This document shows positions 13,136 through 32,200 of a DNA stretch of 50,116 nt, piece after piece. Positions within the stretch are counted from its first letter, which is position 1, and each line of letters starts with the position of its first letter. A model generated the notes under the pieces. It did no database searches. It saw only the letters and a program-made list of their open reading frames with translations, and was not told where the DNA came from. Origin of the DNA: Prevotellaceae bacterium UBA5903 (GTDB taxonomy: Bacteria > Bacteroidota > Bacteroidia > Bacteroidales > Bacteroidaceae); contig DJEH01000037.1 in assembly GCA_002431845.1 (NCBI GenBank), positions 1 through 50,116 on the forward strand, given 5' to 3'. Both the position numbers and the translations under genes were made by a program.

Positions 13136-13167
13136 ATTCTAACAATTGATCCATACCATAAATTTTT

Positions 13168-14034
13168 ATGCAAGCATTCATCAATAATCTTTATGAAAAA
13201 CGCTCTTTCAGCGATAAATTTAATTTTTGCATTGATTGGATAAAAGCATACGCTACACCATTTTTTAAGCAATCATTGCTTTTTATCTTGCCTTTTTGCA
13301 TCATACAAGGCTACCTATTACAAGCGATTATGAAGTATACAAACTCATCATACGTTGGTAGCAGTGTGGCAACAGGAGATATGATAAAAATAGGTCTGTG
13401 TTATGCAGTTTCAATTGTAAGTGCATTCATTGCTTATTCGTTTTTCTATGCACTGATTAAAGAAACGGTTATCAATAAGAACAATCTACAAAAAGCGACC
13501 TTTAGCAGCGTATGGAAGGCTATGAAATCCAATATGTTCAGACTTTTTCTATCATCTGTTGTAGGATTTCTTTTTATTGTTGTCTGCGGTATCATATTAT
13601 TTTTGTTGGCACTTCTGAACAAATTAACACTGATTGTCACCCTTCCGGCTTTTGCAGCAATATGTATAGCACTATTGGCTTTTCAACCTCGATTTATACT
13701 CACAGACGATCCTATACTTGAGGCATTTACGCACGCTCTTAACTTAGGTTTTAAGTGCTGGTGGGGCTTTTTCTCAACAGTCTTTGTGATGGGTGTGCTC
13801 GTCACCATTGTACAATGCTTTGCTTATATACCTATGTACTTAAGCTCTATTACACAGATGCTTACTCAATCGTTTTTAGGGGAAATAATGGGCTATGTAT
13901 CAGGCGCTCTTCTAATTTATGTATCAATGATTACAAGCCTTTTCATGGTGCTCATAATTTGCGTACAGTATGGGCATGCCACAAAAAAAATAGATAAAGA
14001 AGAGCCATTAAACATAGAAGACAAAGTAGCATAA
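13168..14034 (+). CDS. Polytopic membrane protein of unknown function
   Basis: About six hydrophobic segments; no catalytic motif recognised. Confidence 0.7.
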   Translation: MQAFINNLYEKRSFSDKFNFCIDWIKAYATPFFKQSLLFILPFCIIQGYLLQAIMKYTNSSYVGSSVATGDMIKIGLCYAVSIVSAFIAYSFFYALIKETVINKNNLQKATFSSVWKAMKSNMFRLFLSSVVGFLFIVVCGIILFLLALLNKLTLIVTLPAFAAICIALLAFQPRFILTDDPILEAFTHALNLGFKCWWGFFSTVFVMGVLVTIVQCFAYIPMYLSSITQMLTQSFLGEIMGYVSGALLIYVSMITSLFMVLIICVQYGHATKKIDKEEPLNIEDKVA

Positions 14035-14119
14035 AAGCTACATATAACACAACGACAGAGGCTATAAAGACCGAGGACTAAAGTTAAACGATACACTTTT
14101 AAATCACCTTTCAGAAATT

Positions 14120-14157
14120 AAAAAGAGGGCATGCCACACAAAATTTGGCATGCCCTC
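14120..14157 (-). terminator. Intrinsic terminator for the vWA lipoprotein gene (possibly bidirectional)
   Basis: GAGGGCATGCCA...TGGCATGCCCTC inverted repeat preceded by an A-run. Confidence 0.7.
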
Positions 14158-14206
14158 ATCCAATTATAGTTTTATCATCTTATCGTCTTTAACATTTAAT
14201 TTCACA

Positions 14207-16009: not shown

Positions 16010-16314
16010 GATATTCAATGTATTTGAGTCATGAAGCTACAAAAAAGTAGCCCATAACAAGGTTAAATAAAACTTGGCTATTCATCATGCGAACTCACCT
16101 TTCAACTGCTATTTTTCATGTTGTAAACAGAGAAGTAGATGTGTTCTTGATTTATTGACAAAGGTACAGGCTTTTTGTACACAAAAAAACATCATAAATA
16201 ATGATTTTAGCATCAAATACACTAACAAACATATAAAATGCAAAAGCTCAATCATAGATTGCTCGTTTTTATCTCTACACATCAGTATTTTTCTATTTTA
16301 AATTTCAGATTTGG

Positions 16315-16505
16315 CGTAATTAGCTGAAAGCCATAAAGCTCATAGCCAAGGGCATCAATCTAAGTATAGCAGTTTTGGAGTGAAACGCCTTGAAATAGCA
16401 AATGCATAGATGGACTATAGAGTAGCCTTTTGCCCTTTCAGGCTACGACGACGCTTTATCCCTCTATGAAGTTACCCCGGACGATGCGCTTTCCTATAAT
16501 GACTT
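16315..16505. repeat. Degenerate REP-like cluster (CCTGAAAGGGCAAAAGC type)
   Basis: GCTGAAAGCCATAAAGCTCATAGCCAAGGGCA, CGCCTTGAAATAGCAAATGC and inverted GCCTTTTGCCCTTTCAGGC resemble, from memory, Prevotella extragenic palindromes. Confidence 0.45.
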
Positions 16506-16601
16506 TTTAGGAAAAAACACAAGAAATGCTACTGTTATATAGTACGTCTAAGAAACAAAAGAGCCATCCCTCTTTACGTTTCACAAAAAATACAATAAAA
16601 G

Positions 16602-16632
16602 TTTGCAGTTATACTTTTTCTTTTTATATTTG
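16602..16632 (+). promoter_or_regulatory. Consensus Bacteroidetes sigma-A promoter of the RiPP operon
   Basis: TTTG (16602-16605), 19-bp spacer, TATATTTG (16625-16632), 100 bp upstream of the rSAM ATG. Confidence 0.75.
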
Positions 16633-16732
16633 CACTATACAAAAAGACAAACATTAACAACCTTTTTCATTTACCTTAAAGCCTTACAAGTAAATTAGAT
16701 ATTACTCAAAGGCAACTTTATTCACATAGCCT

Positions 16733-18082
16733 ATGAAAATACTATCAAAGTACGCAATTCCATTGAAACTAAAAAATAATCTATATATATTGTTTAATAC
16801 TCGTAATCAAGCTATTGTTAAATTACAAGCGAATGAGTTTGAATCTATCAAACAGATAAAAAATGCTGCAAATCTACATGAAGCAACAAAGAATATTCTC
16901 CATCCAGATTTAGTCAGTATATTAGAAAAACAAAAGTTTATAGTTGCTGAAAATGAGGATAAAGATTACGTAGCAAGCGAAATATTGCGTAATAAAATAG
17001 CCTCCTTTTCATCCAATACTCTTTCAATGACAATAGCTCCTACAAGCGATTGCAATTTTGCGTGTCCTTATTGCTATGAAAAGCATAAAAGACAATGTTT
17101 TATGAGCGATGATGTAATAGACCATTTGGTGCAATATGTAAAGAATTACCAACCATGTACAAAGTTTAAAATAACATGGTATGGAGGTGAACCCTTATTG
17201 GCTTTTGATGAAATAAAGAAACTCTCTGAAAAGTTAGTAGCTATACAAGATAAAGAATGGATAGGACATAGCATTGTAACAAATGCTTCGCTAATTACCG
17301 ATGATGTAATACAATATTTTAAGCAATATAAATTGCGCTCTATACAAATATCTTTGGACGGAATTAAAGAACATCATGACATCACTCGTCGATATAAACA
17401 CAATAAATGTGGTAGCTTTGATGTAATTATCAACAATATTGAAAAGTTATTGCTAAACTTGAACGATACAGATGTTGTTGTGCGTGTTAATATAGATAAA
17501 AATACCATAGATGACTATGGCAAAATAGCCAAGTTTTTTGCAGAAAGGTTTAGTGGACATCTAAATCATCTGAGAATTTACCCTGGATATATCCGTGTAG
17601 AAGACGAAGAAAGAGGATGTTGGAATTGCAATTCAATCTTAAATCAAGATAAATATCTTTTCTTTGATAAAATGGCAGATGCATACGGAGTGCCTGTCAA
17701 TTGGATGCCACAGAGGGCTACTAAAGGATGTGGTGCCACTTCTTTACATAGCTACATTATTGGTCCAGAGGGAGATATGTATAAATGCTGGAACGATTTT
17801 GGCGACAAGAAACGGTGCATAGGCAATATTGCAGATGACCAACTTAAAGGCAATACTCGCCTAATGATGCGCTATTTGGCTATGGGGATTGGACTTGATA
17901 CGGCAGAATGTTGCGAATGCAATCTACTGCCTGTTTGTAGTACGGGGTGCCCATGGGAAAGGATATCTAATGTTTATGATAATAAACATTTTGACTTGTG
18001 CACAATGGCGAAAAGTGAAGAAATATTAAGCCAATGTATGGACAAGTTCTTGGAAGAAAAGGAACTCCAAAGTATTAGTTAG
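16733..18082 (+). CDS. Radical SAM/SPASM peptide maturase with probable N-terminal RRE
   Basis: CNFACPYC (CxxxCxxC), WYGGEPLL, SLDG; SPASM Cys GCGA...GDMYKC, CCECNLLPVCSTGC and DLC; ~95-aa N-terminal extension. Confidence 0.93.
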   Translation: MKILSKYAIPLKLKNNLYILFNTRNQAIVKLQANEFESIKQIKNAANLHEATKNILHPDLVSILEKQKFIVAENEDKDYVASEILRNKIASFSSNTLSMTIAPTSDCNFACPYCYEKHKRQCFMSDDVIDHLVQYVKNYQPCTKFKITWYGGEPLLAFDEIKKLSEKLVAIQDKEWIGHSIVTNASLITDDVIQYFKQYKLRSIQISLDGIKEHHDITRRYKHNKCGSFDVIINNIEKLLLNLNDTDVVVRVNIDKNTIDDYGKIAKFFAERFSGHLNHLRIYPGYIRVEDEERGCWNCNSILNQDKYLFFDKMADAYGVPVNWMPQRATKGCGATSLHSYIIGPEGDMYKCWNDFGDKKRCIGNIADDQLKGNTRLMMRYLAMGIGLDTAECCECNLLPVCSTGCPWERISNVYDNKHFDLCTMAKSEEILSQCMDKFLEEKELQSIS

Positions 18083-18230
18083 CTAAAACTACCATTTGGC
18101 TAAATAAAAATATATTCCTCTTTGAACATAGAGAAATGACTTTAATAGGTTTTGCCTAACAAGGCAACTTGAATATATATATTTTTTTCTCTTTTATAAG
18201 AGATTTGTATTAACCTCAATTATACTAATT

Positions 18231-18470
18231 ATGAATAGAAGTATTCTTTTAAACGAAGCTTCGCATGTAGATGAATTTACATGGGAATCTTTGATTGGTG
18301 GAGCCAAAGGAGATGACTGCACAGGGCAATTTACTTGCGAATGCTATGGTCCAGGTGCATGTAAAGAGCATTCTGGTATGTTTCCCCCTATATGCACTGC
18401 ATATAAACAGGCGTCTTCATTGATAGGGAAACACACCTTGCCAATAAGCATTGCAGAATTGATTTATTAA
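18231..18470 (+). CDS. RiPP precursor peptide A1 (double-glycine leader, 5-Cys core)
   Basis: Leader MNRSILLNEASHVDEFTWESLIGG; core Cx5CxCx5Cx10C; homologous to A2 and A3. Confidence 0.9.
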   Translation: MNRSILLNEASHVDEFTWESLIGGAKGDDCTGQFTCECYGPGACKEHSGMFPPICTAYKQASSLIGKHTLPISIAELIY

Positions 18471-18480
18471 CATTTATCAC

Positions 18481-18533
18481 CTATGCTTTTGAAATGCATT
18501 GCTTCATCATGCATTTTCAAAAGCATAGTTTTT
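18481..18533 (+). terminator. Hairpin between precursor A1 and barrel 1 (leaky terminator or mRNA stabiliser)
   Basis: CTATGCTTTTGAAATGCAT...ATGCATTTTCAAAAGCATAG followed by TTTTT. Confidence 0.7.
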
Positions 18534-18546
18534 AAATTCAAACCTA

Positions 18547-20892
18547 ATGAATACACTAAAACGCAAAATCTGTATTTTGGCATTGTTATTTGGATTTATA
18601 CAATTAGCATGGTCGCAAAACATAGATATAAGTGGCAATATTACGGATACTAATAGTAAGCCCATAATAGGTTCTGTTGTACAATTTCTAAGTGATACGA
18701 TAAAGATTGCACAGAGCACCACAAATAATAAAGGCAATTTTAAAATTCAGATAGCCTCAAAGCAAAACCAAGCACAAAAAAACACGCTTAAAATATCATG
18801 CATTGGCTATGATAGCCAATATGTAGAGCTGCCCAATAAGTTTGATGGTGATATTAAAATAGGCACAATTGTGCTACAATCAAAGGCGCATCAAATTAGT
18901 GAAGCTGTTGTCAATTCATCAAGAACTACTATTGAAAATGGCAAAATAATTAAAGTTCCAAGTAAGGCTGAAAGGGAGCATTCATCAGATGCTATAAGTC
19001 TTCTGGACCAAATGAAAATTGCAGATTTGAGAGTTGATAATTTCAAGGGAACAATACAAAACAGTATAAAGTCTGTTACAGTATATATAAATAATATGCC
19101 TGCAACAGTGAACGAGGCATCTGCCTTACATCCTGATGAAATTATAAGAGTAGAATACCTTATGCACCCTCGTGGCGAGTTTACAGGAGAAGAGTATATT
19201 GTGAATTTCATAACTCGTTTGCAAGACCGAGGAGGAATTTTGATGGGAAATGTTGTTCAAAGTGAAGAAGTTAGTGGAACCTATGGCTTGACGTATAAAA
19301 CTTATCACAAGAAATCTCAATTTGCGGTTTCATATAATGCATCCTATCGCGATGACGAAAAATCATATACAAAGGTTTCACAGTTTATGAACCCCTTGGA
19401 TAACTCTTCGTTCACTTATCAAGAGTTTGCAGAAGGTAACATTAACCGCTCGCATAAAAACTCTTTAGGATTGTTCCACTACTACAGGACAGATGGATTT
19501 AATTCGAATTTGGGAGTATATCTTAATTCATCTAAAAAGCCCTTAGTGCATCTTTCAAGTACTCGTACACAAAGTAATTCGCAACAAACAATATTACAGA
19601 AAGAGAGTAATTCAAACGAATCACTTTTACCATCATTTGATTGGAACGTTCGTAAGAGTTGGAAGAATGGTGATATTCTTAAGTTTACACTTAAAGGTAT
19701 TTATGGTAGAAATAAAAGTTATAGCTTAAGAGAAAATAGTATAGATACAGAATCAAATCCTTATTTCTCATGGGCGAATAACGCAAAAGAAGATTTTTAT
19801 GAAGTATTTAATAAGATAAATTATTCTAAAGGATTTAAGAATAAAGGTGAATTGAACTTTTATTTTTATAATTATAATATGTGGTTTAATGAAAATTATA
19901 CAGGAAACTACAAACTCAAAACCTTACAATATGATGGTCTTATAAATTCGAAAGTTGGCTATACATGGAATTACAAACAAAAGTTCTACGCTTCATTTGA
20001 AATGGGTATAAATTATATGGTAACAACTCAAACGAACGAAGATAAAACAGAACAAACATTTTTTAGCCCAGGCTTAATGTTATCTTATAATTTTAAGAAA
20101 GGCAATATCCAATTTTATTATGATAATGCAACAATAGGAGTTAGTCCATCTTATGTGAGCAATGTAGAACAACAGATGGATGATATACAAATAAAACGTG
20201 GCAATCCAGTGTTAAAGAATACACGAATGCATACACTTAGGTTGAGTGGCTATGTAAAAATTCCTAAAACATTGCTCAGCCTATACATCACTTATAACCC
20301 TCTGCCCAATATAACAAGATGGAAAACAACGTACGAGAATGGAAAGTATGTACACACTCCTATTAATGATGGTACACATCATCCATTGGCTGTTACGTTG
20401 GGAAGTTCTGTAGATATTTGCAAAAATCTTAATGCGAGAGTAAACCTTGGGTGGAATTATTACAAAGAGAATTGTGCCACTTTCCCTCAAACGATTTCAT
20501 CTTTTTATGTATATGCCGATTTACGTTATATGATTGGTCCATTTACACTTGGTGCTTACTGTTACAAACCATCTAAAAGTTATGAAATCTTTGACACATT
20601 TACTCCAACTACGCAAAATGCTTTTAATTCTAGCCTATTTGTTTACTATACGCGCCCTCGCTATTCACTTAGCATTTCGCTTACTAACTTAAACAAAAGA
20701 CGCCCATATAAAACATATTATAGTACAGGGGCATTATTCTCGCAATACCAAAAAAGTTATACAAGTTTAGAAACAAAAAGGACAGCATTTGTTGACGTAA
20801 AACTTACATTCAACTTGCGCCATGGCAATAAAAAGTTCAAATATGAAGATTTTGAGATAAACAACGACTCAAAATCAGCTATTATGGAGTAA
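18547..20892 (+). CDS. Outer-membrane beta-barrel / TonB-dependent-receptor-like protein 1
   Basis: Signal peptide AWS|Q; CarboxypepD_reg-like N-domain (ISGNITD...ISCIGY); EAVV; plug-like IIRVEY...IVNFIT; RGNPVLK; aromatic-rich strands; C-terminal KLTFNL..GNKK. Confidence 0.8.
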   Translation: MNTLKRKICILALLFGFIQLAWSQNIDISGNITDTNSKPIIGSVVQFLSDTIKIAQSTTNNKGNFKIQIASKQNQAQKNTLKISCIGYDSQYVELPNKFDGDIKIGTIVLQSKAHQISEAVVNSSRTTIENGKIIKVPSKAEREHSSDAISLLDQMKIADLRVDNFKGTIQNSIKSVTVYINNMPATVNEASALHPDEIIRVEYLMHPRGEFTGEEYIVNFITRLQDRGGILMGNVVQSEEVSGTYGLTYKTYHKKSQFAVSYNASYRDDEKSYTKVSQFMNPLDNSSFTYQEFAEGNINRSHKNSLGLFHYYRTDGFNSNLGVYLNSSKKPLVHLSSTRTQSNSQQTILQKESNSNESLLPSFDWNVRKSWKNGDILKFTLKGIYGRNKSYSLRENSIDTESNPYFSWANNAKEDFYEVFNKINYSKGFKNKGELNFYFYNYNMWFNENYTGNYKLKTLQYDGLINSKVGYTWNYKQKFYASFEMGINYMVTTQTNEDKTEQTFFSPGLMLSYNFKKGNIQFYYDNATIGVSPSYVSNVEQQMDDIQIKRGNPVLKNTRMHTLRLSGYVKIPKTLLSLYITYNPLPNITRWKTTYENGKYVHTPINDGTHHPLAVTLGSSVDICKNLNARVNLGWNYYKENCATFPQTISSFYVYADLRYMIGPFTLGAYCYKPSKSYEIFDTFTPTTQNAFNSSLFVYYTRPRYSLSISLTNLNKRRPYKTYYSTGALFSQYQKSYTSLETKRTAFVDVKLTFNLRHGNKKFKYEDFEINNDSKSAIME

Positions 20893-20938
20893 TATTACGA
20901 ACTAACAATTCTTATACTAAATTAATTATTAACTGATT

Positions 20939-21187
20939 ATGGATAGCAATATTCTATTAAATGAAGCTTCACACGTTGATGAAGCTTCTTGGGGTTCTCT
21001 GATTGGAGGCATAGGGGCAAACGATAATTGCAATGAGTTTACTTGCAATAATGGTTTTACCTGCAATGTATTTGACAATTGCAAAGTTAAAGGAATTCTA
21101 AGTCCTGGTTGTATTGTACATAAAGAAACTGGAAAGCTTATAAGCAATAATCCTCTGCCAATGAGCATTGCAAGCTTAAACTTCTAA
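20939..21187 (+). CDS. RiPP precursor peptide A2
   Basis: Leader MDSNILLNEASHVDEASWGSLIGG; core Cx4Cx5Cx5Cx9C; tail LPMSIASLNF. Confidence 0.9.
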   Translation: MDSNILLNEASHVDEASWGSLIGGIGANDNCNEFTCNNGFTCNVFDNCKVKGILSPGCIVHKETGKLISNNPLPMSIASLNF

Positions 21188-21192
21188 CATTT

Positions 21193-21286
21193 AGATGGGT
21201 GGATAAAATCAATTAATATGCCTTTGAATGTTGTTTATAAAAAACATTACAAAATGTCTTAATTAGTTGATTTTAATCACTCATCT
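21193..21286 (+). terminator. Long imperfect hairpin between precursor A2 and barrel 2
   Basis: AGATGGGTGGATAAAATCAATTAAT...ATTAGTTGATTTTAATCACTCATCT, with an inner ATGCCTTTGAATG related to the A1/A3 hairpins. Confidence 0.6.
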
Positions 21287-21338
21287 TTACTTATTTTTAT
21301 TCACATAATCATTATAAACATATAGATCCAAGAAACTC

Positions 21339-23684
21339 ATGAATGCCCTTAAGCAAAAACTTTATTTGTTTTTTCTATTATTAAGTGTTACACAGATAGC
21401 ATATGCACAAAACATAGATATAAGCGGTAAAATCGTAGATAGTCAAAATCACCCCTTGCAAGGAAGCCTTGTACAATTATTAAACGATACGATAAAGATT
21501 GCACAAGGATTGACAAATGATAAAGGGACCTTTAAACTTCATTTAAGAAATAAATCAGATAAAGGAAATAAAAAGACGCTCAAAATATCTTGCCTTGGCT
21601 ATGAAAGCCAATCTATTGAATTAGAAAACAATCTTACCGATAACATAGAGTTAGGCACAATTAGTTTGTCTTTAAAGGCACAACAGATGGGAGAGGCTAT
21701 TGTGAGTACTTCAAGAACAACCCTTACAAATGGTAAAATTATAAAGATTCCAAGTAAGAAGGAAAAAGAGCATGCATCTGATGCTGTAAGTCTGCTCAAA
21801 CAAATGGGACTTGCAGATTTAAATGTGGATTTGAATAAAGGAATAATAAAAAATAGTGTAAAGAATGTAGCTATATATATCAATAATATGCCCGCAACGA
21901 TGGAAGAAGCTTTTGCTTTACCTACTAATGAGGTTGTAAGAGTGGAATACCATACACATCCACAGGGCGAATTTATGGGTGTAGACTACCTTGTGAACTT
22001 CATTACTCGTTCGCCAAAGCATGGAGGACTCTTGATGGGAAGTATTACACAAAACGAGGAAGTTAGTGGAATATATAGATTGACGTATAAAATGTATCAT
22101 AAGAAAAGCCAATTTGGTTTTTCTTATAGTGGCTTTTATCGCGATGACAAGACGTCATATAGTAAAGTTTCGCAGTTTACAAACCCTATAGATAATACTT
22201 CGTTATCTCAACAAGAAATAGCAGATAGAACTATTAATCGTTCACACAGAAATTCATTCGGCTTGTTTCATTATTACAGAACAGATGATTTTTCATCTAA
22301 TTTAGGTCTTTACTTAAATTTGCCCAAAAGCCCTTTGACGCATTCTACAACCACTCGCACACAAGATAATCAACTACAAAAGATCTTGCTTGATGAAAGC
22401 AAATCAAGCCAATCATATACTCCATCCTTAGATTGGAACATTCGTAAGGAATGGAAAAACGGAGATGTACTTAAATCCACGCTTGGTTTGGTTTATGGTA
22501 AAAACAAAGACTATAGTTTAAAAGAGAACCATTTTGATAATGAATCTACGCCCTATTTCTCCTGGATAAACAACACAAAAGAGGATTATTACAAGATTAC
22601 TAATAATATTATTTATTCAAAGTCACTCAATAAGGCTGGACAAATAGATTTCAACTTATATAACATGCATATATGGTTTGACGAAAAATATATGGGTAGT
22701 TTTAAACGTAATATATTGCAATATGATGGGCTTGTATATCCAACTATTGGATATTCATGGAGTTATAAGCAAAAGCTCAACATTTCGCTACAAATGGGAG
22801 CCAAATATATGGTAACAACTCAAACGGATGAAAGCAAAATTGCTCAAACATTCCTTGCTCCAAGTGCTGCGATATCTTACAATTTCAAAAAAGCCTATAT
22901 TAGCTTTTCTTATGGTAATGCCTCGGCAGGTGCTGCCCCATCACATTTGGGAAATGTAGAGCAAAGAATGGATGACATACAAAGCAAACGTGGTAATCCT
23001 ACGCTTAAAAATATGCGACTTCATTCTTTAGCATTACAAGGTTATATACAAATACCTAAAAACATGCTTAGTTGGAGTATTGTTTATAATCCACAACCCA
23101 ATAGCATAAGATGGACAACATTGTATGATAATGGACGTTACGTGCACATGCCTATTAATGATGGCACACACCACCCATTAACAATTACGCTTGGCAATAC
23201 TGCTAATATCACTAATAATCTTCAAGCCACAGTTAATCTCGGTTGGAACTATAACAAAGAAGTATGTACCACATATCCTCATGCAACATCGTCTTTCTTT
23301 GCATATGCCGATTTGCGTTATTGGGTAGGTGCATTTACATTTGGCGCATACTGCTATAAACCATGTAAGACCTATGAAATGTTTGACATGTTTACTCCTA
23401 CCGCACGTCAGCCTTTTACATTCAATGTATATGCCTATTACACGCGTCCACACTATTCACTTAGCATCTCATGTTATAACTTAAACAAAAAACACCCGCA
23501 GATAGTTGAAAGTAGCACTGGTGCTTTGTTCTCTCAATACCAAAAGAACTATACAAGTTTAGAGGAGAAACGAACAGGGTTTGTAACCCTTAAACTTACC
23601 TTTAACTTGCGCTACGGTAATAAAAAATTCCAATATGAGGACTTTGAAATAAAGAACAACTCAAATTCAGCTATTATGAAATAA
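21339..23684 (+). CDS. Outer-membrane beta-barrel / TonB-dependent-receptor-like protein 2
   Basis: Colinear paralog of 18547-20892; both are 781 aa. Confidence 0.8.
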   Translation: MNALKQKLYLFFLLLSVTQIAYAQNIDISGKIVDSQNHPLQGSLVQLLNDTIKIAQGLTNDKGTFKLHLRNKSDKGNKKTLKISCLGYESQSIELENNLTDNIELGTISLSLKAQQMGEAIVSTSRTTLTNGKIIKIPSKKEKEHASDAVSLLKQMGLADLNVDLNKGIIKNSVKNVAIYINNMPATMEEAFALPTNEVVRVEYHTHPQGEFMGVDYLVNFITRSPKHGGLLMGSITQNEEVSGIYRLTYKMYHKKSQFGFSYSGFYRDDKTSYSKVSQFTNPIDNTSLSQQEIADRTINRSHRNSFGLFHYYRTDDFSSNLGLYLNLPKSPLTHSTTTRTQDNQLQKILLDESKSSQSYTPSLDWNIRKEWKNGDVLKSTLGLVYGKNKDYSLKENHFDNESTPYFSWINNTKEDYYKITNNIIYSKSLNKAGQIDFNLYNMHIWFDEKYMGSFKRNILQYDGLVYPTIGYSWSYKQKLNISLQMGAKYMVTTQTDESKIAQTFLAPSAAISYNFKKAYISFSYGNASAGAAPSHLGNVEQRMDDIQSKRGNPTLKNMRLHSLALQGYIQIPKNMLSWSIVYNPQPNSIRWTTLYDNGRYVHMPINDGTHHPLTITLGNTANITNNLQATVNLGWNYNKEVCTTYPHATSSFFAYADLRYWVGAFTFGAYCYKPCKTYEMFDMFTPTARQPFTFNVYAYYTRPHYSLSISCYNLNKKHPQIVESSTGALFSQYQKNYTSLEEKRTGFVTLKLTFNLRYGNKKFQYEDFEIKNNSNSAIMK

Positions 23685-23699
23685 TGTAATTAAATCTAT

Positions 23700-24028
23700 G
23701 GATATAAAGTATATATCGGTGCCAATGTACAACTTGATTTGTTTGAAACTGCGCACATAAAATTAGAATGTCCATATCGCTTAAATCAAAAGGGCTGGAA
23801 GCCAATATTCATACCGCTTGCTAAAGCAAGGAAAAGAATTGAAACCTTATTCTCACAACTTACAGAGCAATTTTTGGTTATCAGAAACTATGCAAAGATC
23901 ATGAGTGGTTTGTTTGCTAGAATAATTAGCAAAATTAGTGCACTTACCATTCTGCAATATGTAAACTTTATCAACAACAAGCCCATCGGCAGAATTAAGT
24001 ATGCACTAAATTAATTCTACCAACGGGT
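23700..24028 (+). pseudogene. IS982-family transposase remnant (3' end plus right terminal repeat)
   Basis: In-frame YIGANVQLDLFETAHIKLECPYRLNQK...RKRIETLFSQL...RNYAK...RIISKI...IKYALN. Ends TTAATTCTACCAACGGGT (IS982 ends read ACCC). The 5' part is absent. Confidence 0.85.
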
Positions 24029-24048
24029 TATTTTTTAATATAACTATT

Positions 24049-24282
24049 ATGAATAGCAATATTCTATTAAACGAAGCCTCACACGTTGATGAAGCTTCTT
24101 GGGGTTCTCTGATAGGAGGAATAGAGGAAGGTGTATGCAATGGTAAGTACACTTGTATTTGTAATGGTGGTTCATGCTACATTAATGGTATGGAAAAGCC
24201 AGGTTGCATCTCCTATAGAGAAACAGCTCCCCTAATTACAAAAAAACATTTGCCAATAGAGATTGCAAAATTGAGCTATTAA
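24049..24282 (+). CDS. RiPP precursor peptide A3
   Basis: Leader MNSNILLNEASHVDEASWGSLIGG; core Cx5CxCx4Cx9C; tail LPIEIAKLSY. Confidence 0.9.
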   Translation: MNSNILLNEASHVDEASWGSLIGGIEEGVCNGKYTCICNGGSCYINGMEKPGCISYRETAPLITKKHLPIEIAKLSY

Positions 24283-24291
24283 CATTGTCTT

Positions 24292-24345
24292 CAATGCTTT
24301 TGAAATGCATTGTTTCAAGTAAATAATGCGTTTTCAAAAGCATTG
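24292..24345 (+). terminator. Hairpin between precursor A3 and barrel 3
   Basis: CAATGCTTTTGAAATGCATT...AATGCGTTTTCAAAAGCATTG, homologous to the A1 hairpin; no clear T-run. Confidence 0.65.
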
Positions 24346-24360
24346 TAATATTTATTGCAC

Positions 24361-26712
24361 ATGATAAATACAAATAAACAAAAATTATCTCTTTTGACAT
24401 TGTTATTTGTTATTATGCAAGTAGCATGGTCGCAAAGCATAGATATAAAAGGGAAAATTACAGATAGTGATAATGGGCCATTGCAAGGTGCTGTTGTAAG
24501 TTTGTTCTGCGATACCATACGAATGAATCAAGTATTTACAAACAACAATGGAGTATTTTCATTACGATGCAAGCATAACTTAAATAAGCCACAAAAATTT
24601 GCTTTACAAATATCTTGCCTTGGATATGAAAGTCAATTGTTTGAGTTGCAAAACGAATTAACTAAAAACATTGATTTAGGTACTATTAGTTTAACATCGA
24701 GTGCACATCAGATGGGCGAAGCTGTTGTTAGTACATCAAGAGTCTCTCTATCTAATGGTATTATCATAAAAGTTCCAAGCAAGATTGAAAAAGAACATTC
24801 TTCAGATGCCATAAGTTTGTTAAGCCAAATGGGGCTTGCAGATTTAAGGGTTGACATGTTCAAGGGGACCATAAAAACTGCAAGTAAAGATGTTGCCATA
24901 TATATCAACAATCTGCCAGCAAGCAAAGATGAAGCCCTTGCATTACATCCGAATGAAATTGTTAGAGTAGAATATCACCCTAACCCACAAGGCGAATTTA
25001 CAGGGATAGATGCGCTTGTAAACTTTATTACACGTTCGCCTGAAAAAGGTGGACTTTTGATGGGAAATATCCTCCAAAATGAAGAAGTCTGTGGAATGTA
25101 TAATTTGACATATAAATTCTATCATAAGAAAAATCAAATTGGCTTTTCATATAAAGCATCCTACCGTAACGATAAACAATCATATACAAAGACTTCACAG
25201 TTTGCTGCCCCGTTAGAAAACACAACATTTATTCGTCAAGAAATGGCAGAAGGCATTGCTAATCGCAATCACAAGAATACCTTTAACTTTTTTCATCACT
25301 ACAAAGCAGATGATTTCTACTCAAAATTAGAGGCATGCTTAGATATAAGCAAAAGACCATTGACGCATACCACAAGTAGGCGTATGCAAAATGGTTTAAC
25401 ACAAATCACTTGGCTTGATAAAACCCAATCGAACAATACTTTCTTACCATCCTTGGAATGGAAAATGCGTAAAGTTTGGGCTAATGGACAGGTTCTAAAC
25501 ACAAGATTTGCTGTTGGCTATGAAAAAAATAAATATTATAGTTTGAATGAGAATCAACTTGATAGCGAATTATATCCATATTTTTCGTGGACGGATAAAA
25601 TAAACGAAAATGGTTACACACTCCATAACGTTTTAAACTATTCAAAAGCATTCAAAAACCAAGGGCAATTAAATATTATATTGTATAACGACCATGTATG
25701 GTATCGTGACAATTATACAGGAGATGCCAAAGCAAAAATATTATTATACCATGGTTGGGTTAGCCCGTTAGCAGGCTATACATGGAACTACAAGCAAAGA
25801 TTTTTTGCAACATTTAATATGGGGTATACCTATGCTGTAACAAAACAAACAAAAGAAGATAAATGCATTGAAAAATCTTTTACTCCAGAAATAAGGTTGT
25901 CTTATAATTTTAAAAAAGCTAACATTAATATACATTATAAAAGTAGAGTATTAAATACTCCGCTCTCGTATGTGGGAAATGTAGAACAAAGCATTGATGA
26001 CATCCAATACAAATTTGGAAATCCAGCATTGAAGAACATGAAAAGCTATGCACTTGTATTGGATGGTTTCGTAAAAATTCCCAAGAGCATGTTAAGTTGG
26101 TATGTAAGCTACATGCCTATTACGCAAATGACAAGGTGGACAACTATTTACGAGAATGGCAAGTATGTGCATACACCTATTACAGATGGCACACATCATC
26201 CTTTGTTTGCATCAGTTGGCTATAACGTAGATATAACAAAGCAACTCCAGTTTAGAGGCAATTTGGGATGGAACTATGAGAAGGAAGTTTGTGCAACACA
26301 TCCGCAAACCAATTCGTCATTCGATATTTATGCCGAATTACGCTATTTTGTAGGTGCATTTACGTTTGGTGCATATTGCTATAAGCAATGTAAGCGTTTT
26401 GGAATGGAAGATATGTTTACACCTACAACACGCTATCCTTTAGCTTTTAGTGTCTTTGCCAACTATGTACGTCCTCACTATTCACTTAGTGTAGCGTGCT
26501 ACAACATAGGCAATCGCATGCAGAAAAAGAGTGAATGCAGTACGGGGGGCTATTTATTCTCTCAATGGCAAAGCAATTATAGCAGTTTAGAGGATAAACG
26601 CAAAGAGTTTATTAGCGTAAAGCTAACCTTCAATCTGCGTCATGGCAACAAAAAAGTCCAATATGAGGACTTTGAGCTAAAGAGCAATTCAAAATCAGCC
26701 ATTATGCAATAA
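24361..26712 (+). CDS. Outer-membrane beta-barrel / TonB-dependent-receptor-like protein 3
   Basis: Colinear paralog of barrels 1 and 2; ATG at 24361 is preferred to TTG at 24355. Confidence 0.8.
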   Translation: MINTNKQKLSLLTLLFVIMQVAWSQSIDIKGKITDSDNGPLQGAVVSLFCDTIRMNQVFTNNNGVFSLRCKHNLNKPQKFALQISCLGYESQLFELQNELTKNIDLGTISLTSSAHQMGEAVVSTSRVSLSNGIIIKVPSKIEKEHSSDAISLLSQMGLADLRVDMFKGTIKTASKDVAIYINNLPASKDEALALHPNEIVRVEYHPNPQGEFTGIDALVNFITRSPEKGGLLMGNILQNEEVCGMYNLTYKFYHKKNQIGFSYKASYRNDKQSYTKTSQFAAPLENTTFIRQEMAEGIANRNHKNTFNFFHHYKADDFYSKLEACLDISKRPLTHTTSRRMQNGLTQITWLDKTQSNNTFLPSLEWKMRKVWANGQVLNTRFAVGYEKNKYYSLNENQLDSELYPYFSWTDKINENGYTLHNVLNYSKAFKNQGQLNIILYNDHVWYRDNYTGDAKAKILLYHGWVSPLAGYTWNYKQRFFATFNMGYTYAVTKQTKEDKCIEKSFTPEIRLSYNFKKANINIHYKSRVLNTPLSYVGNVEQSIDDIQYKFGNPALKNMKSYALVLDGFVKIPKSMLSWYVSYMPITQMTRWTTIYENGKYVHTPITDGTHHPLFASVGYNVDITKQLQFRGNLGWNYEKEVCATHPQTNSSFDIYAELRYFVGAFTFGAYCYKQCKRFGMEDMFTPTTRYPLAFSVFANYVRPHYSLSVACYNIGNRMQKKSECSTGGYLFSQWQSNYSSLEDKRKEFISVKLTFNLRHGNKKVQYEDFELKSNSKSAIMQ

Positions 26713-26740
26713 AAAATGCAGACTTATTATACCATGCAAT

Positions 26741-28984
26741 ATGATAGATGTTTATAAGATAAAACAAAATTTCCTACTTTGGTATAAACTAAAGTTCACA
26801 CCACAGTTCGACCAAATGGATTGTGGCCCGGCTTGTGTGCGCATGGTAGCCTCTTATTGGGGCAAACTATGTCCCCTACCCTTATTGCGACAATGGGCTG
26901 GCATGTCGCGCGAGGGCGTGAGTGTGGCAGGCATACGCGACGCACTTAAGCACATAGGCATGGATTGTATGGTTTACAGAATGAAGTCTTCTGTTCTTGC
27001 CACTAAGTGTCCATTACCAGCAATTCTTTATTGGGACCAAAACCATTTTGTTGTACTCAATGGAGTAAAAAAGAAACATATATGGCAAAAAGAAGAGCAA
27101 GCTAAATATCATTTTAGGATAGCCAATCCTGCGTGTGGACAAACTTGGATGGAACAAGACGATTTTGAGCATCATTGGCTTACAGAAGGCGAAGGGATCG
27201 TGGTGGTAACAGCTCCCAACGAGGGAAATTTTCACGAATATACACCCCCTACCAGCAAACATAGCATGCGGCATTTTGCAAAACAATATGTAAAGCCCTA
27301 CCGTCATTCAATGTTGGCTTTAGGCATTTGCATGTTATTAGGTATTGTGTTCAATTTGCTAACTCCTTTCGTCACGCAAGCATTGGTAGACCAAGGTATT
27401 GCACAAAAAGACTTAGGGCTTATAGGCATGCTACTCTTTGCTCAAGTATGCATATTTTTGGGCAACTTCATACAGAATTTTATAAGCAATTGGGTGGCGC
27501 TATATATGGGTACACACATCAATATCAGTTTACTCAGCGACTATCTGAAAAAGCTGTTACGTTTGCCCATGCAGTTTTTCGACACCAAGAGCACAGGCGA
27601 CTACAACCAGCGCATCAACGACCATACACGCTTGCAAAACTTTGTTACGCAAGGTGCACTACAAACGTTCTTGTCATTGATAACCATACCCGTTTTAGCA
27701 GCTGTCATTGGGTATTATTCGCCCAAGGTGCTATTGGTGTATGCTGTGTTTACATTATTCTCTTTGTTATGGACATTCTATTTTCTGCAACGTCGCAAGG
27801 TTATGGACTATGAGCAATTCAGACTGAATGCTCAAAACCAGAACAAGCTATTTGAGATGATGAATGGCATAACCGAAATCAAACTATCCTCGTACGAAGA
27901 TGCCAAGACCCAACAATGGGAGGAGGTGCAACAACAGTTGTATCGGATGAACAAGCGCATTTTACGTCTAAATCAATGCCAAGACGCAGGTTTTAGCCTT
28001 ATCAGTCAGTTACGAAATGTGCTCATCATATTTTGGATAGCAGCCGAGGTGGTTCACGGAAATCTTACATTAGGTATGATGATGAGCATTTCGGCCATGA
28101 TGGGCCAACTTGATGGCCCGTTATCCTCGCTAATCTCGTTTGTTCGTCAATTTCAAGATGCGCGCATAAGCTTAGAGCGTTCTGAAGAAGTGCGCATTTC
28201 AGACGAAGAAGACAAGGGCCGCAACAAAGAAATGTCAGACGAAGCCTCTTATGCCTATTCGCTGCAAAACGTATCTTACGCTTATCCAGGAGGCGGAGGA
28301 CGAAAGGCTTTAAACGATATTAGCATTGATATTCCTGCTGGTAAGATGACGGCAATTGTCGGTGAAAGCGGTAGCGGAAAAACCACGTTAATGAAGCTAC
28401 TGCTAAACTTTTACGCACCACAGTCGGGGCAGATAATGCTGAACGGAACCAACTTGCAACAATACACCGCTAAGTCCGTAAGACAACATGCAGGGATTGT
28501 AATGCAAGATGGCTTTGTATTCTCTGACACGATAGCACATAATATATGCTTAAATGCTCCTTTCAACGATAAGCAGATGCAAGAAACTCTTAACATAACC
28601 TGCTTAGCTGATTGGGTTAATTCCCTACCGCTAAAACTCAACACCAAAGTAGGCGCAGAGGGCAATGGAATAAGTGGAGGTGAGCGACAAAGGCTTATGA
28701 TTGCTCGCGCTATATACAAAAGTCCTCATTGTTTGTTTTTTGATGAAGCCACAAGTTCATTAGATGCAGAAAACGAACGTGATATAACCGAGCATATCGA
28801 CCACTATTTTGCCCACATCACTCGCATCGTTATTGCACATAGACTCAGTACTGTTTGCCAAGCAGACCAAATAATTGTCATGAACAGAGGCCGCATTGTT
28901 GAAGTAGGAACTCATCAAGAACTCGTAAAGATAAAGGGATACTATTACAACCTAATAAAAAACCAATTAGAGTTGGCCAAATAA
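26741..28984 (+). CDS. Peptidase-containing ABC transporter (C39 PCAT, SunT/LagD family)
   Basis: QFDQMDCGPAC, HFVV, IANPA; TM domain; Walker A GESGSGKT, signature ISGGERQR, Walker B LFFDE, IAHR. Confidence 0.95.
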   Translation: MIDVYKIKQNFLLWYKLKFTPQFDQMDCGPACVRMVASYWGKLCPLPLLRQWAGMSREGVSVAGIRDALKHIGMDCMVYRMKSSVLATKCPLPAILYWDQNHFVVLNGVKKKHIWQKEEQAKYHFRIANPACGQTWMEQDDFEHHWLTEGEGIVVVTAPNEGNFHEYTPPTSKHSMRHFAKQYVKPYRHSMLALGICMLLGIVFNLLTPFVTQALVDQGIAQKDLGLIGMLLFAQVCIFLGNFIQNFISNWVALYMGTHINISLLSDYLKKLLRLPMQFFDTKSTGDYNQRINDHTRLQNFVTQGALQTFLSLITIPVLAAVIGYYSPKVLLVYAVFTLFSLLWTFYFLQRRKVMDYEQFRLNAQNQNKLFEMMNGITEIKLSSYEDAKTQQWEEVQQQLYRMNKRILRLNQCQDAGFSLISQLRNVLIIFWIAAEVVHGNLTLGMMMSISAMMGQLDGPLSSLISFVRQFQDARISLERSEEVRISDEEDKGRNKEMSDEASYAYSLQNVSYAYPGGGGRKALNDISIDIPAGKMTAIVGESGSGKTTLMKLLLNFYAPQSGQIMLNGTNLQQYTAKSVRQHAGIVMQDGFVFSDTIAHNICLNAPFNDKQMQETLNITCLADWVNSLPLKLNTKVGAEGNGISGGERQRLMIARAIYKSPHCLFFDEATSSLDAENERDITEHIDHYFAHITRIVIAHRLSTVCQADQIIVMNRGRIVEVGTHQELVKIKGYYYNLIKNQLELAK

Positions 28985-29020
28985 CAAATAAGGGTGAATA
29001 AGCACTCTAAAGTTAAGAAC

Positions 29021-29069
29021 AAAGCAGTTTGTAAGGCACTATCTACGTGCACATACAAACTGCTTTTTT
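29021..29069 (+). terminator. Intrinsic terminator closing the RiPP operon
   Basis: AAAGCAGTTTGTA...TACAAACTGCTTT followed by further Ts. Confidence 0.75.
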
Positions 29070-29239
29070 GATTTGAATATATTGAATTATTACTGTCCAG
29101 TAAAACTTAGGTAAATAACTCAAAAAACTCCCAACACATTACATAAAAGTAATAAGTTGGGAGTAAAAAATTATTATAAAAGAACAACTACAAGAAAGTG
29201 TTCTTTGAACTATTCAAATGGTATAGGTTGAACATCATA

Positions 29240-32200
29240 TTAGAATGTTAAACGCAAACCTACTTGGCAGTGCCAACGAGAACTTATGTCGCTCTTGGTT
29301 GGAGCATTTGATGAGTTATAAGAGTAGGTAGGAGTATAAACCTTTGAGTCGCCTTGAGTTGAAGATGCTATGCTCTCAATCTTTAGAGGAGAATAGTTCC
29401 AACTTACAGAATAACTTGCGCCCCACTTCTTATTAAGCATATTAGCAAAATTGATAATGTCGAATGTGAACTCAAGTTTACCAATACCATTGATGTTGTA
29501 GATAGACTGTGCCAAGTGAACATCTATTTCGTGTTCCCAATCAGAGAGATTAGAGTTGCGCTCTGCATATCGTCCACGATGGTTCTTGGCATAGCTATCA
29601 TGCTCAATCCATTGGCCAAACTTAGCACGGTCGTCTTCTGTCTTGAAGTTCATCTTAGCCAACTCATCTGCTGTTGGGATGTAGAGTAATGAGTTTGCTG
29701 TTGCACCATCACCATTAAAATCTGTGCGTGTTGCATCGTAATATGTTAGGTTATAACGTGAGCCGCTAAAGCCGTTATAAGTAAGGGCAACAGTGGTACT
29801 TGTCCAACCATTAAGGTACTTAGGTGTGGTGTAAGACAACGTAAAGAGTACACGATGTGGAATATCAAACTTAGAGAAACCTAACTCATTGCCTGAGTTT
29901 GAGTCTACAGAGAAGTTCTTTTGCCAGTTAGAATAAGCTACAGAAGACTTACCATCATTAACCGATTTGGCACGGCTAAAGGTGTAACTTGCATTAAGGT
30001 CAAGGCCAAAGTCGAACGACTTTTGCAATTGCGCTGTAATCGCATAAGTGTAGCCCTTGTTGGTGTTGCGTAGGTTGATGATAGAGTTGTAGTTACCCTT
30101 GTTAATTGAATAGTAAGGAGCTGCAGAAGCTTCTACACCAGGAATGGCATAAGTAGTTCCGGTACGATTAAGAGCAAGGTTTTCAAAGAACACATTGTTA
30201 AGTGTTTTTGTATAAACACCTTCCAACGTAAATTTCACATTGCCTGGCAATGTTTGCTCAACAGCCAAGTTTGCACGCAAAGCTTGTGGGAACTTGTAGT
30301 TTTTGTTAATCGTAACAATGTCGGGTTTTGCAGCACTACCTGCACCTTGTTGGTCCTCGATTGCTTGCAATGGGTTGTGTGCATACTGTCCCAATTTAGG
30401 CGTAGTGTTTTCGCCCGTTTTAGGAGCATATATAGTAGTACCCTTAGCCTCCATACCCGTGTTGGTAAATGCATTCGAAATCCATACAAGAGGCACACGA
30501 CCAGTGAACATGCCTACACCACCACGAATAAGTGTTGAATGGTCATCGTTAAGATACCAGTTGAAGCCCAAACGAGGAGATACAAGTAGCTTAGTACTTG
30601 GTGTGCTACCTACAGTGGCATTTAGTTTATTGTTTGCAGCCCATTGGTTGAACTCTGGGTTTTCAGTAGGATTGTTCCAAATAACAGGAATATCGAAGCG
30701 TAAGCCCAAAGTTGCATTGAAGTTGCGATTAACCACCCATTTATCTTGAACATAGAAGCCAAATTGTGCAGCCTTGAGCACTGGGGCCCATTTTGTGTCG
30801 CCACCTGTTAGAGCGGGATCAGTGTATTTATAAGTAAATTTGCTTGGATTGTCGTTCAAGAAATCATTGAGCGAATCGTAATACCACGAACCATTTGATG
30901 CTTGAATAAATAGGTTCTTTGTGCGATAAAATTCGTTGTGAGTACCAAAAATAAGTGTGTGATTGCCTTTGTACCAAGAGAGGTTATCCTCAAAGGTGTA
31001 GATGTTTTGGTCAAGATAGTTAGCACCCGAAGAATAGTCCGTACCGATATTACCTGTTATGGTTTTAACACTTTCGTCAGCACTTACCAAGTTATAAATC
31101 TGCACGGTAGGACCCTGATATGCCACATCACGATGATCGCGTACAACAACGGCAGAAGCACGTAGCTCGTTATAGATAGATGGCGAGATGTGCGAAGTCA
31201 ATTCAGCTACAACAGAGTTAGTTTTGTTATTCATACGATAACTTGAGTTGTTAAAAGTGTACGACTTAACACTTTCGCCATACTTGTCATCGTAACCATT
31301 ATTGTGTTGGTAGCGCACACTGAGTTTGTTATCGTCGTTGATATTCCAATCAACACGTGCCAAAAGTCCAAACGATTTTTTTTCTACATTACGTTGTCCG
31401 TAACCATCGCTAAAGCCCGTTAGCTCTTGGTATCTGTCTGCTATCTGCTTAGCTGCTGCTTCTGTAATGTACGAAGGAGCATAGCCTGGATATATGCTTG
31501 TTGGGTAAGACTGCTTTTTGCCTTCAGCACTTACAAAATAGAACAACTTATCCTTGATGATTGCACCACCGAGCGTACCGCCATACGTGCGCTCATACTG
31601 TGTGCTCATAGGCACCTTTTCGTAGTCGTGTATAGCACTATACTTGCCATACATGTTTTGGTTATTGAAATAGGTGTAAGCCGATGCATGCGTGGTGTTG
31701 GTACCTTGCTTTGTAACGGCATTAATAGCGCCACCTGTAAAACCACTTTGTCGCACATCAAAAGGTGCTACAGCTACTTGTATTTCTTCAATAGCATCCA
31801 TTGAAATTGGTGAAGCTCCTGACTGACCACCATTTGTGCCTGATGATGTAAGACCAAAAACATCGTTGCTCACAACACCATCTATTTGAAAGCTATTAAA
31901 ACGATTGTTTGAACCTGCAAAGCTTATACCACCATCTTTGTTGGTCATAGCCATTGGCGAGTTCTTTACCAAATCGTAGACATCACGGTCTACGGTTGGT
32001 ACATTCTCAATCTGTGATAGCGAGAAATTCTTGGCCGCACCGCCCTTTTGCTTACGTGCTCCTGTTACAACTGCCTCGTTCAGCGAATTGTCTTTAGGAC
32101 TAAGCGTAACATTTACTGGAAGCGAGCTACCCAATTCAAGGTAAAGTTTGCTAAATGTTTTAGGCGCATAGCCGATATACGAAATCGTGATGGTGTAAGG

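Follow-up and report, generated by a model that had tools for sequence, protein, structure and literature searches.

The described systems closest to the locus treated here are two Bacteroidales gene clusters for peptides that are synthesized ribosomally and modified post-translationally (RiPPs). In Bacteroides thetaiotaomicron, the itf cluster encodes the precursor ItfA, the YcaO protein ItfB, the radical S-adenosylmethionine (rSAM) enzyme ItfD, the peptidase-containing ATP-binding cassette (ABC) transporter (PCAT) ItfE and the TonB-dependent transporter (TBDT) ItfF (PMC11002830), and a Parabacteroides distasonis cluster of the RaS-RiPP type (RaS, radical S-adenosylmethionine), listed as uncharacterized, comprises a 61-mer precursor, RaS enzyme, TonB-dependent receptor and PCAT (PMC9389541). 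A survey of Bacteroidales RiPPs also describes arrangements of PCAT, membrane fusion protein and outer-membrane protein (PMC10352776). The window analyzed here, a 50,116-nt stretch of DNA from the gut Bacteroidales member Prevotellaceae bacterium UBA5903 (contig DJEH01000037.1, assembly GCA_002431845.1), contains an operon that carries one rSAM maturase, three modules of a precursor peptide gene, a hairpin and an outer-membrane protein gene (the product being termed a barrel below), and one PCAT. Its gene content is that of a Bacteroidales RiPP cluster with an rSAM enzyme, a TBDT and a PCAT, and the operon is a rare elaboration of the cluster type defined by an rSAM enzyme, a TBDT-like protein and a PCAT. 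This type is already in print; the precursor family, the peptide–receptor modules that are co-duplicated and co-diverged, and the pattern of PCATs without HlyD are new. A first-pass annotation, made from the sequence alone, had not recognized the architecture from characterized systems. The architecture is less novel than that view implied, the combination of rSAM enzyme, TonB-dependent receptor and PCAT being published; in the main texts of the literature searched (supplements lay outside its scope), no function assigned to such receptors and no tandem precursor–receptor modules were found.

The repeated unit consists of a peptide gene, a spacer and a barrel gene and recurs at 2792 and 3025 nt from start to start; the peptide–barrel pair is thus the unit of duplication, as the first-pass annotation had proposed. 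Module 3 is more widely spaced because a remnant of an IS982-family transposase, absent from that annotation, lies between modules 2 and 3. A sister lineage has orthologues of all three pairs (compared as proteins; P0004, P0005, P0006, and P0011). Over their full length, the peptide orthologues are 85% (P0005, peptide 1), 70% (P0006, peptide 2) and 83% (P0004, peptide 3) identical to those of the window, and P0004 precedes the barrel 3 orthologue in loci L008 and L009. The peptide cores show 68–80% identity to their orthologues versus 27–45% to their paralogues, and barrels 1–3 show 77, 85, and 83% identity to their orthologues versus 55–60% to their paralogues; dN/dS values of 0.06–0.22 across all genes indicate purifying selection. 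The repeat structure and these comparisons show that precursor and barrel duplicated and diverged together. The leaders follow another course: in the window, leaders 2 and 3 have 96% identity as protein and 93% as DNA (20936–21017 versus 24046–24127), compared with 60–79% DNA identity by segment for the adjacent barrel genes, and the same two leaders are again the most alike in the sister lineage. This suggests that leaders are homogenized within a genome, by gene conversion or concerted evolution.

Each precursor begins with a near-invariant 24-aa leader ending in LIGG, which is followed by a variable core with five Cys after the GG and by a conserved tail, LP(I/M)xIAxLx(Y/F) (LPISIAELIY in peptide 1); the part after the GG measures 53–58 aa. 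The LIGG at residues 21–24 is invariant in 7/7 members of the peptide family. With a GG leader and a C39 transporter in the same operon, the peptides classify as double-glycine precursors. A search of NCBIfam (E ≤ 10), including TIGR04149, returned no family for any of the three, in agreement with the earlier impression that the leader resembles neither TIGR04149 nor other known precursor families. An Atlas feature search with peptide 3 gave a best value of 0.86, which is a lead only, and a TIGR04149-type feature at 0.85, which is below the level at which it would count. The family is small: a peptide profile retrieved seven proteins from 16 candidates in 5.8 billion proteins, three of them near-identical variants of the window's own peptides. 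Barrel 1 retrieved eight proteins at E ≤ 1e-5 from 6327 candidates in the same 5.8 billion, and scans of contigs located one locus among genome contigs and two short loci among metagenome contigs.

The outer-membrane proteins are predicted, on the basis of a structural model, to be TBDT-fold proteins with an N-terminal extension typical of the phylum. In outer-membrane protein 1, a signal peptide is followed in order by a CarboxypepD_reg domain, a TonB-box-like motif, a plug, a barrel and a 22-aa C-terminal tail. Pfam (E ≤ 0.01) lists CarbopepD_reg_2 in all three barrels and OMP_b-brl_3 in barrel 1 alone (34.8 bits, cut-off 27), and at this threshold lists no Plug or TonB_dep_Rec model for any of them; NCBIfam gave no relevant family, with no match for barrels 1 and 3 and for barrel 2 only a 16-bit NikL-family match far below its cut-off. 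An AlphaFold2 (AF2) model of barrel 1, built from a 134-row alignment, reached a pLDDT of 88.8 and a pTM of 0.78. Among the top 50 Foldseek rows listed for this model, all are TBDTs (best E 5e-17), and VIA-align superposed 450–516 residues within 126–757, which is plug plus barrel, at Z 18–20 and a root-mean-square deviation of 3.5–4 Å on proteins that include PirA, B. thetaiotaomicron BtuB1, HasR, OprC, FhuA, and Cir. The classical TBDT barrel has 22 strands and is closed by an N-terminal plug. Residues 116–124, in the unstructured stretch before the plug, read QISEAVVNS, QMGEAIVST, and QMGEAVVST in the three paralogues, against a family consensus of LxEVxV, and this EAVV-type motif may correspond to the TonB box of Bacteroidetes receptors. 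The outer-membrane barrel assigned in the first-pass annotation is thereby confirmed and narrowed to the TBDT fold, and fewer of the roles it had offered (exporter, surface anchor or re-uptake receptor) therefore remain.

All three paralogues agree in 54% of the columns of the plug, 39% of the N-terminal domain and 43% of the barrel, and no clear hot spot emerged when their differences were mapped on the secondary structure of the model. A complex prediction of barrel 1 (25–781) with mature peptide 1 (25–79) scored 0.00 in both runs, which is no evidence either way. Past the last strand, residues 760–781 (window 20824–20889, and the corresponding segments of the paralogues) form a low-confidence 22-aa tail, RHGNKKFxYEDFE...SAIM, whose pattern G(K/N)KK ... 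S(A/G)I(L/M)K is kept across the wider family of ~770-aa proteins; it is unusual for an outer-membrane barrel to continue in a conserved C-terminal extension after its last strand.

The maturase scores 66.8 bits against Pfam Radical_SAM (PF04055; cut-off 29.5), with CX3CX2C at residues 107–114 (C107, C111, C114) behind an N-terminal extension of ~95 aa that precedes the rSAM core, and with a C-terminal cluster of Cys at positions 333, 352, 362, 393, 394, 396, 402, 406, and 423. Matches to models of SPASM maturases reach residues 411–443, and Pfam (E ≤ 0.01) lists no SPASM model. Near-full-length NCBIfam matches all fall below the cut-off (TIGR04334 Clo7bot, 227 versus 600; TIGR04463, 195 versus 525; CefB NF038107, 193 versus 600), as do PapB (129 versus 340) and SCIFF (89 versus 425), so that none of these named equivalogs claims the enzyme. 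The closest solved structure is 5wgg/5why (E 8.8e-15), which we take to be the ranthipeptide/SCIFF maturase CteB. By sequence, the closest relatives of the enzyme appear to be ranthipeptide-type maturases, all under their family cut-offs, and the predicted crosslinks are most likely thioethers, as in ranthipeptides.

The PCAT is above the Pfam cut-off for Peptidase_C39 (98.8 bits), ABC_membrane (106.3 bits), and ABC_tran (111.6 bits), and contains QMDCG at 25, HFVV at 102, and the Walker A sequence GSGKT at 544; against NCBIfam TIGR01193 it scores 371, below the cut-off of 524. The operon itself contains no gene for a HlyD-type adaptor, and a single HlyD query against the window's genome, which is 89% complete, gave only a partial match (residues 10–101 of 448). 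Beside such barrels, the HlyD partner usual for PCATs is often missing. Of 400 other genomes from the order, 145 have PCATs at E ≤ 1e-100 (scoring the two best candidates of each), and 60 loci were hand-picked from the top of this list, mostly with ~8 kb of upstream flank, forming a non-random sample of related genomes. Proteins of ~440 aa were counted as the adaptor, one representative being confirmed as HlyD_3, and a gene within two genes of the PCAT was counted as adjacent. By these definitions, a HlyD_3-type adaptor is adjacent to the PCAT in 52/60 loci and a barrel-family gene in 8/60. Four of the eight loci with a barrel have the adaptor (L074, L076, L078, and L121) and four do not, versus 48 with and four without among the 52 loci that have no barrel (Fisher p 0.008, which overstates the significance because kin are not independent); one of the four loci with neither gene stops at a contig end. 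Beyond the survey, PCATs stand beside barrels without an adjacent adaptor in the window and in L005, L059, and L053. The window's genome has a second PCAT (L129, G000:C56:203–2380) of 725 aa, 54% identical to that of the window, which sits at a contig start and is followed by a 129-aa open reading frame (ORF), with no HlyD gene beside it.

The one-to-one pairing of peptide and barrel holds in the lineage of the window and breaks down elsewhere (L008, L009, G537, L109, and L106). In further loci of the order, peptide:barrel ratios of 1:1, 2:1, 3:1, 3:2, and 0:1 occur, and strict pairing is therefore a feature of the lineage and not of the system; uncoupled counts, which the first-pass annotation had named as the finding that would speak against pairing as a rule, are largely what is seen outside the lineage. 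L008 and the metagenome-assembled genome (MAG) contigs L005 and L006 carry the rSAM gene, no peptide, an intact hybrid barrel, and then the counterparts of peptide 3 and barrel 3; the hybrid is barrel 1-like with a barrel 2-like C-terminus. In L009 the first barrel is reduced to a C-terminal remnant of 98 aa. G537 belongs to the genus but is more distant; it has a pair of GG-leader peptides with CxxxC repeats 5′ of its rSAM gene, behind which come a single barrel and a PCAT, and G539 has a barrel and a PCAT, with no rSAM gene found by one query. Among the other arrangements are peptide–rSAM–barrel–PCAT (L069; 1:1, the peptide lying 5′ of the rSAM gene), peptide–rSAM–barrel–two peptides–PCAT (L109; three peptides, one barrel), a 353-aa rSAM enzyme with three CxxxC peptides and two barrels (L106), and rSAM–barrel–PCAT, where the filter for Cys and GG picked no peptide (L098). 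Other Cys-rich GG-leader precursors lie beside rSAM–barrel–PCAT sets in L109 (10190–14737), L106 (3820–4474), L069 (4067–4258), and L068 (6823–7446); precursors of other genera include cores with CxxxC repeats, and the only ones compared with curated precursor models are the two of L068. L106 also carries an FGE-sulfatase-like gene.

A barrel-family member is found at E ≤ 1e-60 in 3/147 other genomes of the genus, and the wider family at E ≤ 1e-25 in 26/400 other genomes of the order. A barrel profile run against 1.84 billion representatives retrieved 3752 relatives at E ≤ 1e-3, among them 233 with E ≤ 1e-30, and most are full-length proteins of ~770 aa; Pfam detected the N-terminal domain in nine of ten such relatives and nothing in P0019. 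Barrel and PCAT are also adjacent in the close relatives G512/L005, G537/L058, and G539/L059. In a quickly built tree with 30 members of the family (14 PCAT-adjacent, 15 not, 1 distant; barrels <600 aa excluded, and sampling biased by the route of discovery), the PCAT-adjacent label changes four times versus a shuffled mean of 10.3, with 0/500 shuffles as low, and the PCAT-adjacent rows form deep, long branches. Outside these rows the family is mostly lone: 14 of the 15 contexts L039–L053 have no PCAT of ≥400 bits nearby, and the genes neighboring the non-PCAT clade are not conserved. The search for small Cys-rich ORFs beside these 15 wider-family barrels gave a single convincing case, L050, which adjoins an rSAM gene, and the peptide link is therefore not family-wide. 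L050 (G277; 9109–16540), from a genome of the same taxonomic family, carries on one strand the genes of a 464-aa rSAM enzyme and of a 54-aa peptide whose C-terminus is rich in Cys, three genes without annotation and a barrel gene, with no PCAT within the 20 kb examined. A homologous gene of ~236–256 aa occurs near the barrel-family genes of L049, L050, and L053 (blastp cluster 3); the L053 copy looks ThiF/E1-like by reading and neighbors a LuxR-type-looking gene, and a PCAT lies 3′ of the barrel there.

The features of the operon are listed in Table 1. The promoter, rSAM/SPASM gene, three modules, C39 exporter and terminator that the first-pass annotation had placed on one strand were all recovered there, with every element on the + strand, and its reading of the locus as a RiPP-type operon that has a single SPASM maturase and a single PCAT is supported. 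The motif pair of the promoter matches what we take to be the Bacteroides –33/–7 consensus and is conserved in L006 and L009, again 5′ of the rSAM gene; a generic σ70 scan was uninformative (61 sites versus 59.5 expected). Each hairpin was compared with 200 shuffles, of which 0/200 were as stable for all three. Hairpins 1 and 3 are related in sequence (repeat families D14 and D15), whereas that of module 2 is a longer structure of unlike sequence; hairpin 1 is likely an attenuator or mRNA stabilizer. Rfam (E ≤ 0.1, 15500–30000) gave as its sole match a chance-level snoRNA of 34.1 bits, below gathering.

Table 1. Elements of the operon and their positions in the window.
Feature	Position	Strand	Basis
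Bacteroidetes-type promoter (TTTG 16602–16605, 19-nt spacer, TAtaTTTG 16625–16632)	16602..16632	+	Direct reading
rSAM/SPASM maturase, 449 aa	16733..18082	+	Pfam, NCBIfam
Precursor peptide 1, 79 aa	18231..18470	+	ORF, alignment
Hairpin 3′ of peptide 1 gene	18481..18528	+	dG –22.7 kcal/mol, z –7.1
TBDT-like outer-membrane protein 1, 781 aa	18547..20892	+	Pfam, AF2, Foldseek, VIA-align
Precursor peptide 2, 82 aa	20939..21187	+	ORF, alignment
Long hairpin 3′ of peptide 2 gene	21193..21286	+	dG –30.6 kcal/mol, z –4.1
TBDT-like outer-membrane protein 2, 781 aa	21339..23684	+	Pfam CarbopepD_reg_2; 60% identity to barrel 1
IS982-family transposase, C-terminal remnant	23739..24014	+	NCBIfam NF033520, profile positions 172–242/243; Pfam DDE_Tnp_1
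Precursor peptide 3, 77 aa	24049..24282	+	ORF, alignment
Hairpin 3′ of peptide 3 gene	24292..24345	+	dG –26.4 kcal/mol, z –5.1
TBDT-like outer-membrane protein 3, 783 aa from ATG	24361..26712	+	Start in ORF list is TTG 24355 (785 aa)
PCAT, 747 aa	26741..28984	+	Pfam, motifs
Intrinsic terminator (12-bp stem 29022–29065, then U-run ending 29069)	29022..29069	+	RNA fold

The cassette from promoter to terminator (16214–29121) is inverted relative to the same conserved flanks in L005, L006, and L009, a comparison made with a related MAG and an independent metagenome contig: in the relatives, the homologue of window 29122 onwards adjoins the rSAM side, and that of 16213 and below adjoins the PCAT side. 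The search for inverted or direct repeats of ≥10 nt shared by the borders of the cassette gave none, and nothing therefore points to a site-specific inversion system. The flanks show 86–93% DNA identity to the relatives and the cassette ~80%. G+C content at third codon positions is 0.28–0.31 in the rSAM, peptide and barrel genes (16733–26712), 0.44 in the PCAT gene and 0.39 in flanking genes, and the PCAT has a dS of 2.07 to its orthologue versus 0.8–1.0 for the other genes; by these sequence measures, the block of maturase and modules may differ in history from the PCAT. A stretch of ~300 nt (16214–16510) that separates the left flank from the promoter region looks G+C-richer than its surroundings by eye and is absent from related loci; Rfam gave no match for it, and it holds no noteworthy ORF. 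Directly past the terminator, in convergent orientation, the – strand encodes a 1063-aa protein with CarboxypepD_reg and OMP_b-brl_4 (29240–32431), which belongs to the conserved flank and not to the cassette, and presumably has the architecture of Oar-type TonB-dependent proteins.

The reading we favor, tentatively and with its probability put somewhat below even, is that the barrels are peptide-specific outer-membrane gates that complete secretion. A single promoter would drive the full operon, and the hairpins after the small genes probably raise peptide mRNA relative to that of the large genes. The maturase would recognize the common 24-aa leader and crosslink the five-Cys cores, after which the PCAT would cut behind LIGG and deliver the 53–58-aa product to the periplasm. 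Because the operon has no HlyD adaptor, the crossing of the outer membrane is assigned to the TBDT-like proteins; precursor and TBDT-like gene were co-duplicated twice, and each barrel most likely handles the neighboring peptide. The direction would be outward, through a TonB-energized gate in a two-step secretion, as with Oar for PopC. The crosslink chemistry, the specificity of barrel for peptide and the direction of transport are what we infer. An outer-membrane gate is favored because the product is far too large to diffuse through porins, the adaptor is absent, and the TBDT is the one conserved partner of the PCAT. Precedents are the TBDT Oar, which is required for the secretion of PopC (PMC6434023), and the PF14905/SusC-like proteins of Bacteroidetes graspetide loci, which are predicted to mediate export (PMC8939145). 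That a TBDT-fold protein replaces the HlyD/TolC half of the PCAT machine, works outward and is cargo-specific enough for pairwise duplication and divergence is a bolder proposal, possible but rather doubtful; under it, the operon would amount to a threefold test of specificity set up by nature. Several observations weigh against secretion through the barrels. An adaptor is present in half of the barrel-adjacent PCAT loci of the survey, and an extra export gate would therefore be redundant there; one barrel serves two or three peptides in G537 and L109, and strict cargo specificity is therefore not general; and the intact barrel 1-like gene without a peptide in L008-type loci suits a receptor better than a dedicated exporter. 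The conserved tail and variable core of the peptides are, moreover, unlike what a shared export signal with three gates would predict, and the variable positions of the modeled barrel appear scattered, pointing to no binding site. To our knowledge, the TBDTs known apart from Oar are importers.

The chief rival is that the peptides are secreted ligands with cognate uptake receptors and re-enter, bare or loaded with cargo (e.g., metal), through their own TBDT. The three ligand–receptor pairs would then be three “private” channels, parallel to HasA/HasR, to methanobactin and MbnT, and to the pyoverdine types and FpvA types. We consider this a serious contender, yet on balance unlikely. It fits better the canonical direction of TBDTs, the barrels having the fold of canonical importers with plug and TonB-box-like motif; the intact orphan barrel that persists without a peptide in L008 and G512, as in receptor piracy; the cassette without an immunity-like gene; and the four adaptor-bearing loci, half of those with a barrel beside the PCAT, in which the HlyD adaptor could secrete the peptide. 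Co-divergence is the classic pattern of ligand and receptor, the peptides are Cys-rich, and methanobactin is re-internalized by the TBDT MbnT (PMC9601215). It leaves a 53–58-aa peptide with no evident exit, as HlyD is absent from the operon and no full-length one was found in the genome with one query, and the cassette is without an inner-membrane importer, a periplasmic binding protein, a sensor or a metal-responsive regulator. The rSAM enzyme is also expected to use up the Cys thiols, and three ligands co-transcribed from one promoter would be unusual for signals or metallophores.

If the peptides were anti-Bacteroidales toxins acting on outer-membrane proteins, each barrel could instead protect its producer, either by standing in for the surface target (as decoy or as resistant variant) or by clearing the peptide from the periplasm, which we regard as improbable. 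No other immunity candidate is present in the cassette, toxin–immunity pairs commonly duplicate as units while orphan immunity genes persist (compare L008), GG-leader peptide toxins of Bacteroidales act on the outer-membrane protein BamA (PMC8546649), and the conserved peptide tail alternates hydrophobic residues and ends in Tyr/Phe, which we take to be reminiscent of the β-signal of outer-membrane proteins. We know of no TBDT that is an immunity protein, however; one barrel accompanies two or three peptides in other loci, and if a barrel were a resistant allele of a target, sensitive relatives should carry close homologues, yet only the 3/147 other genomes of the genus noted above have one. 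Still less probable, to the point of being nearly negligible, is that the barrels are ordinary nutrient transporters copied along with the peptide genes by unequal recombination and have no functional link to them. The wider ~770-aa family is indeed mostly lone in variable contexts, and tandem repeats recombine readily, as the hybrid barrel of L008 and the remnant of L009 illustrate; such hitch-hiking is hard to reconcile with a barrel lying between an rSAM and a PCAT gene in several families of the order that are unrelated (L069, L098, L109, and G537), the strong clustering of the PCAT-adjacent label on the tree, the same trio in published clusters (PMC9389541; PMC11002830) and purifying selection on all three copies.

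Because the three diverged pairs share one maturase and one exporter, specificity (nine combinations) and direction can be tested in a single construct. If the barrels are exporters, they would be just the second outward-working TBDT known to us; if they are importers, a dominant gut lineage would have peptides that serve as “public goods” or as signals, each with its private receptor. Several RiPP clusters of gut Bacteroidales, published and unpublished, contain TonB-dependent receptors. How peptides of 50–60 residues cross the outer membrane of Bacteroidales bears on antagonism and signaling in the microbiome.

Compared with the ranthipeptide/SCIFF, Clo7bot, TIGR04463, and CefB systems, the window shares a ~450-aa maturase with an N-terminal extension, a Cys-rich core and C39/ABC export, and differs in scores far under the cut-offs, the lack of a curated precursor match and a long product of 53–58 aa with a conserved tail, as well as, relative to ranthipeptide/SCIFF-type systems, in its Gram-negative host and outer-membrane partner. 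Bacteroidetocins are said to be unmodified save for a disulfide and to have a HlyD partner. With the peptides of the window they share the GG leader, the Bacteroidales host and export by a PCAT, and they act at the outer membrane on BamA; unlike in the window, the available text describes neither an rSAM enzyme nor a TBDT for them (PMC8546649). Oar of Myxococcus xanthus, as a TBDT that moves a periplasmic polypeptide outward (PMC6434023), does what is proposed for the barrels of the window, and differs in that its cargo is a protease rather than a RiPP, with no PCAT and no gene-by-gene pairing. The window barrels have ~780 aa, and the Oar-like protein with CarboxypepD_reg and OMP_b-brl_4 is the 1063-aa neighbor at 29240–32431. 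Oar itself reportedly has a CarboxypepD_reg N-terminal domain. In the HasA/HasR system, ligand, exporter and cognate TBDT are encoded together, as in the window. The same is described for methanobactin and MbnT (PMC9601215); the ligands of both systems carry heme or copper and come with adaptor or inner-membrane parts, whereas in the window neither a cargo nor a regulator nor an uptake component is visible.

The itf and P. distasonis clusters come nearest, with the same set of precursor, SPASM-type rSAM enzyme, TonB-dependent receptor and C39 exporter as the window, the likeness to the itf type being one of gene content. The published clusters contain, in the parts of the reports available, components that the window does not, namely a YcaO protein or a two-component system with nucleotidyltransferases (PMC11002830; PMC9389541). 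ItfD forms a Trp–Ile C–C link on a motif without Cys (PMC11002830), whereas the window cores carry five Cys. As described, each of the two clusters has one precursor and one receptor, whereas the operon of the window has three modules with five-Cys cores and no further enzyme.

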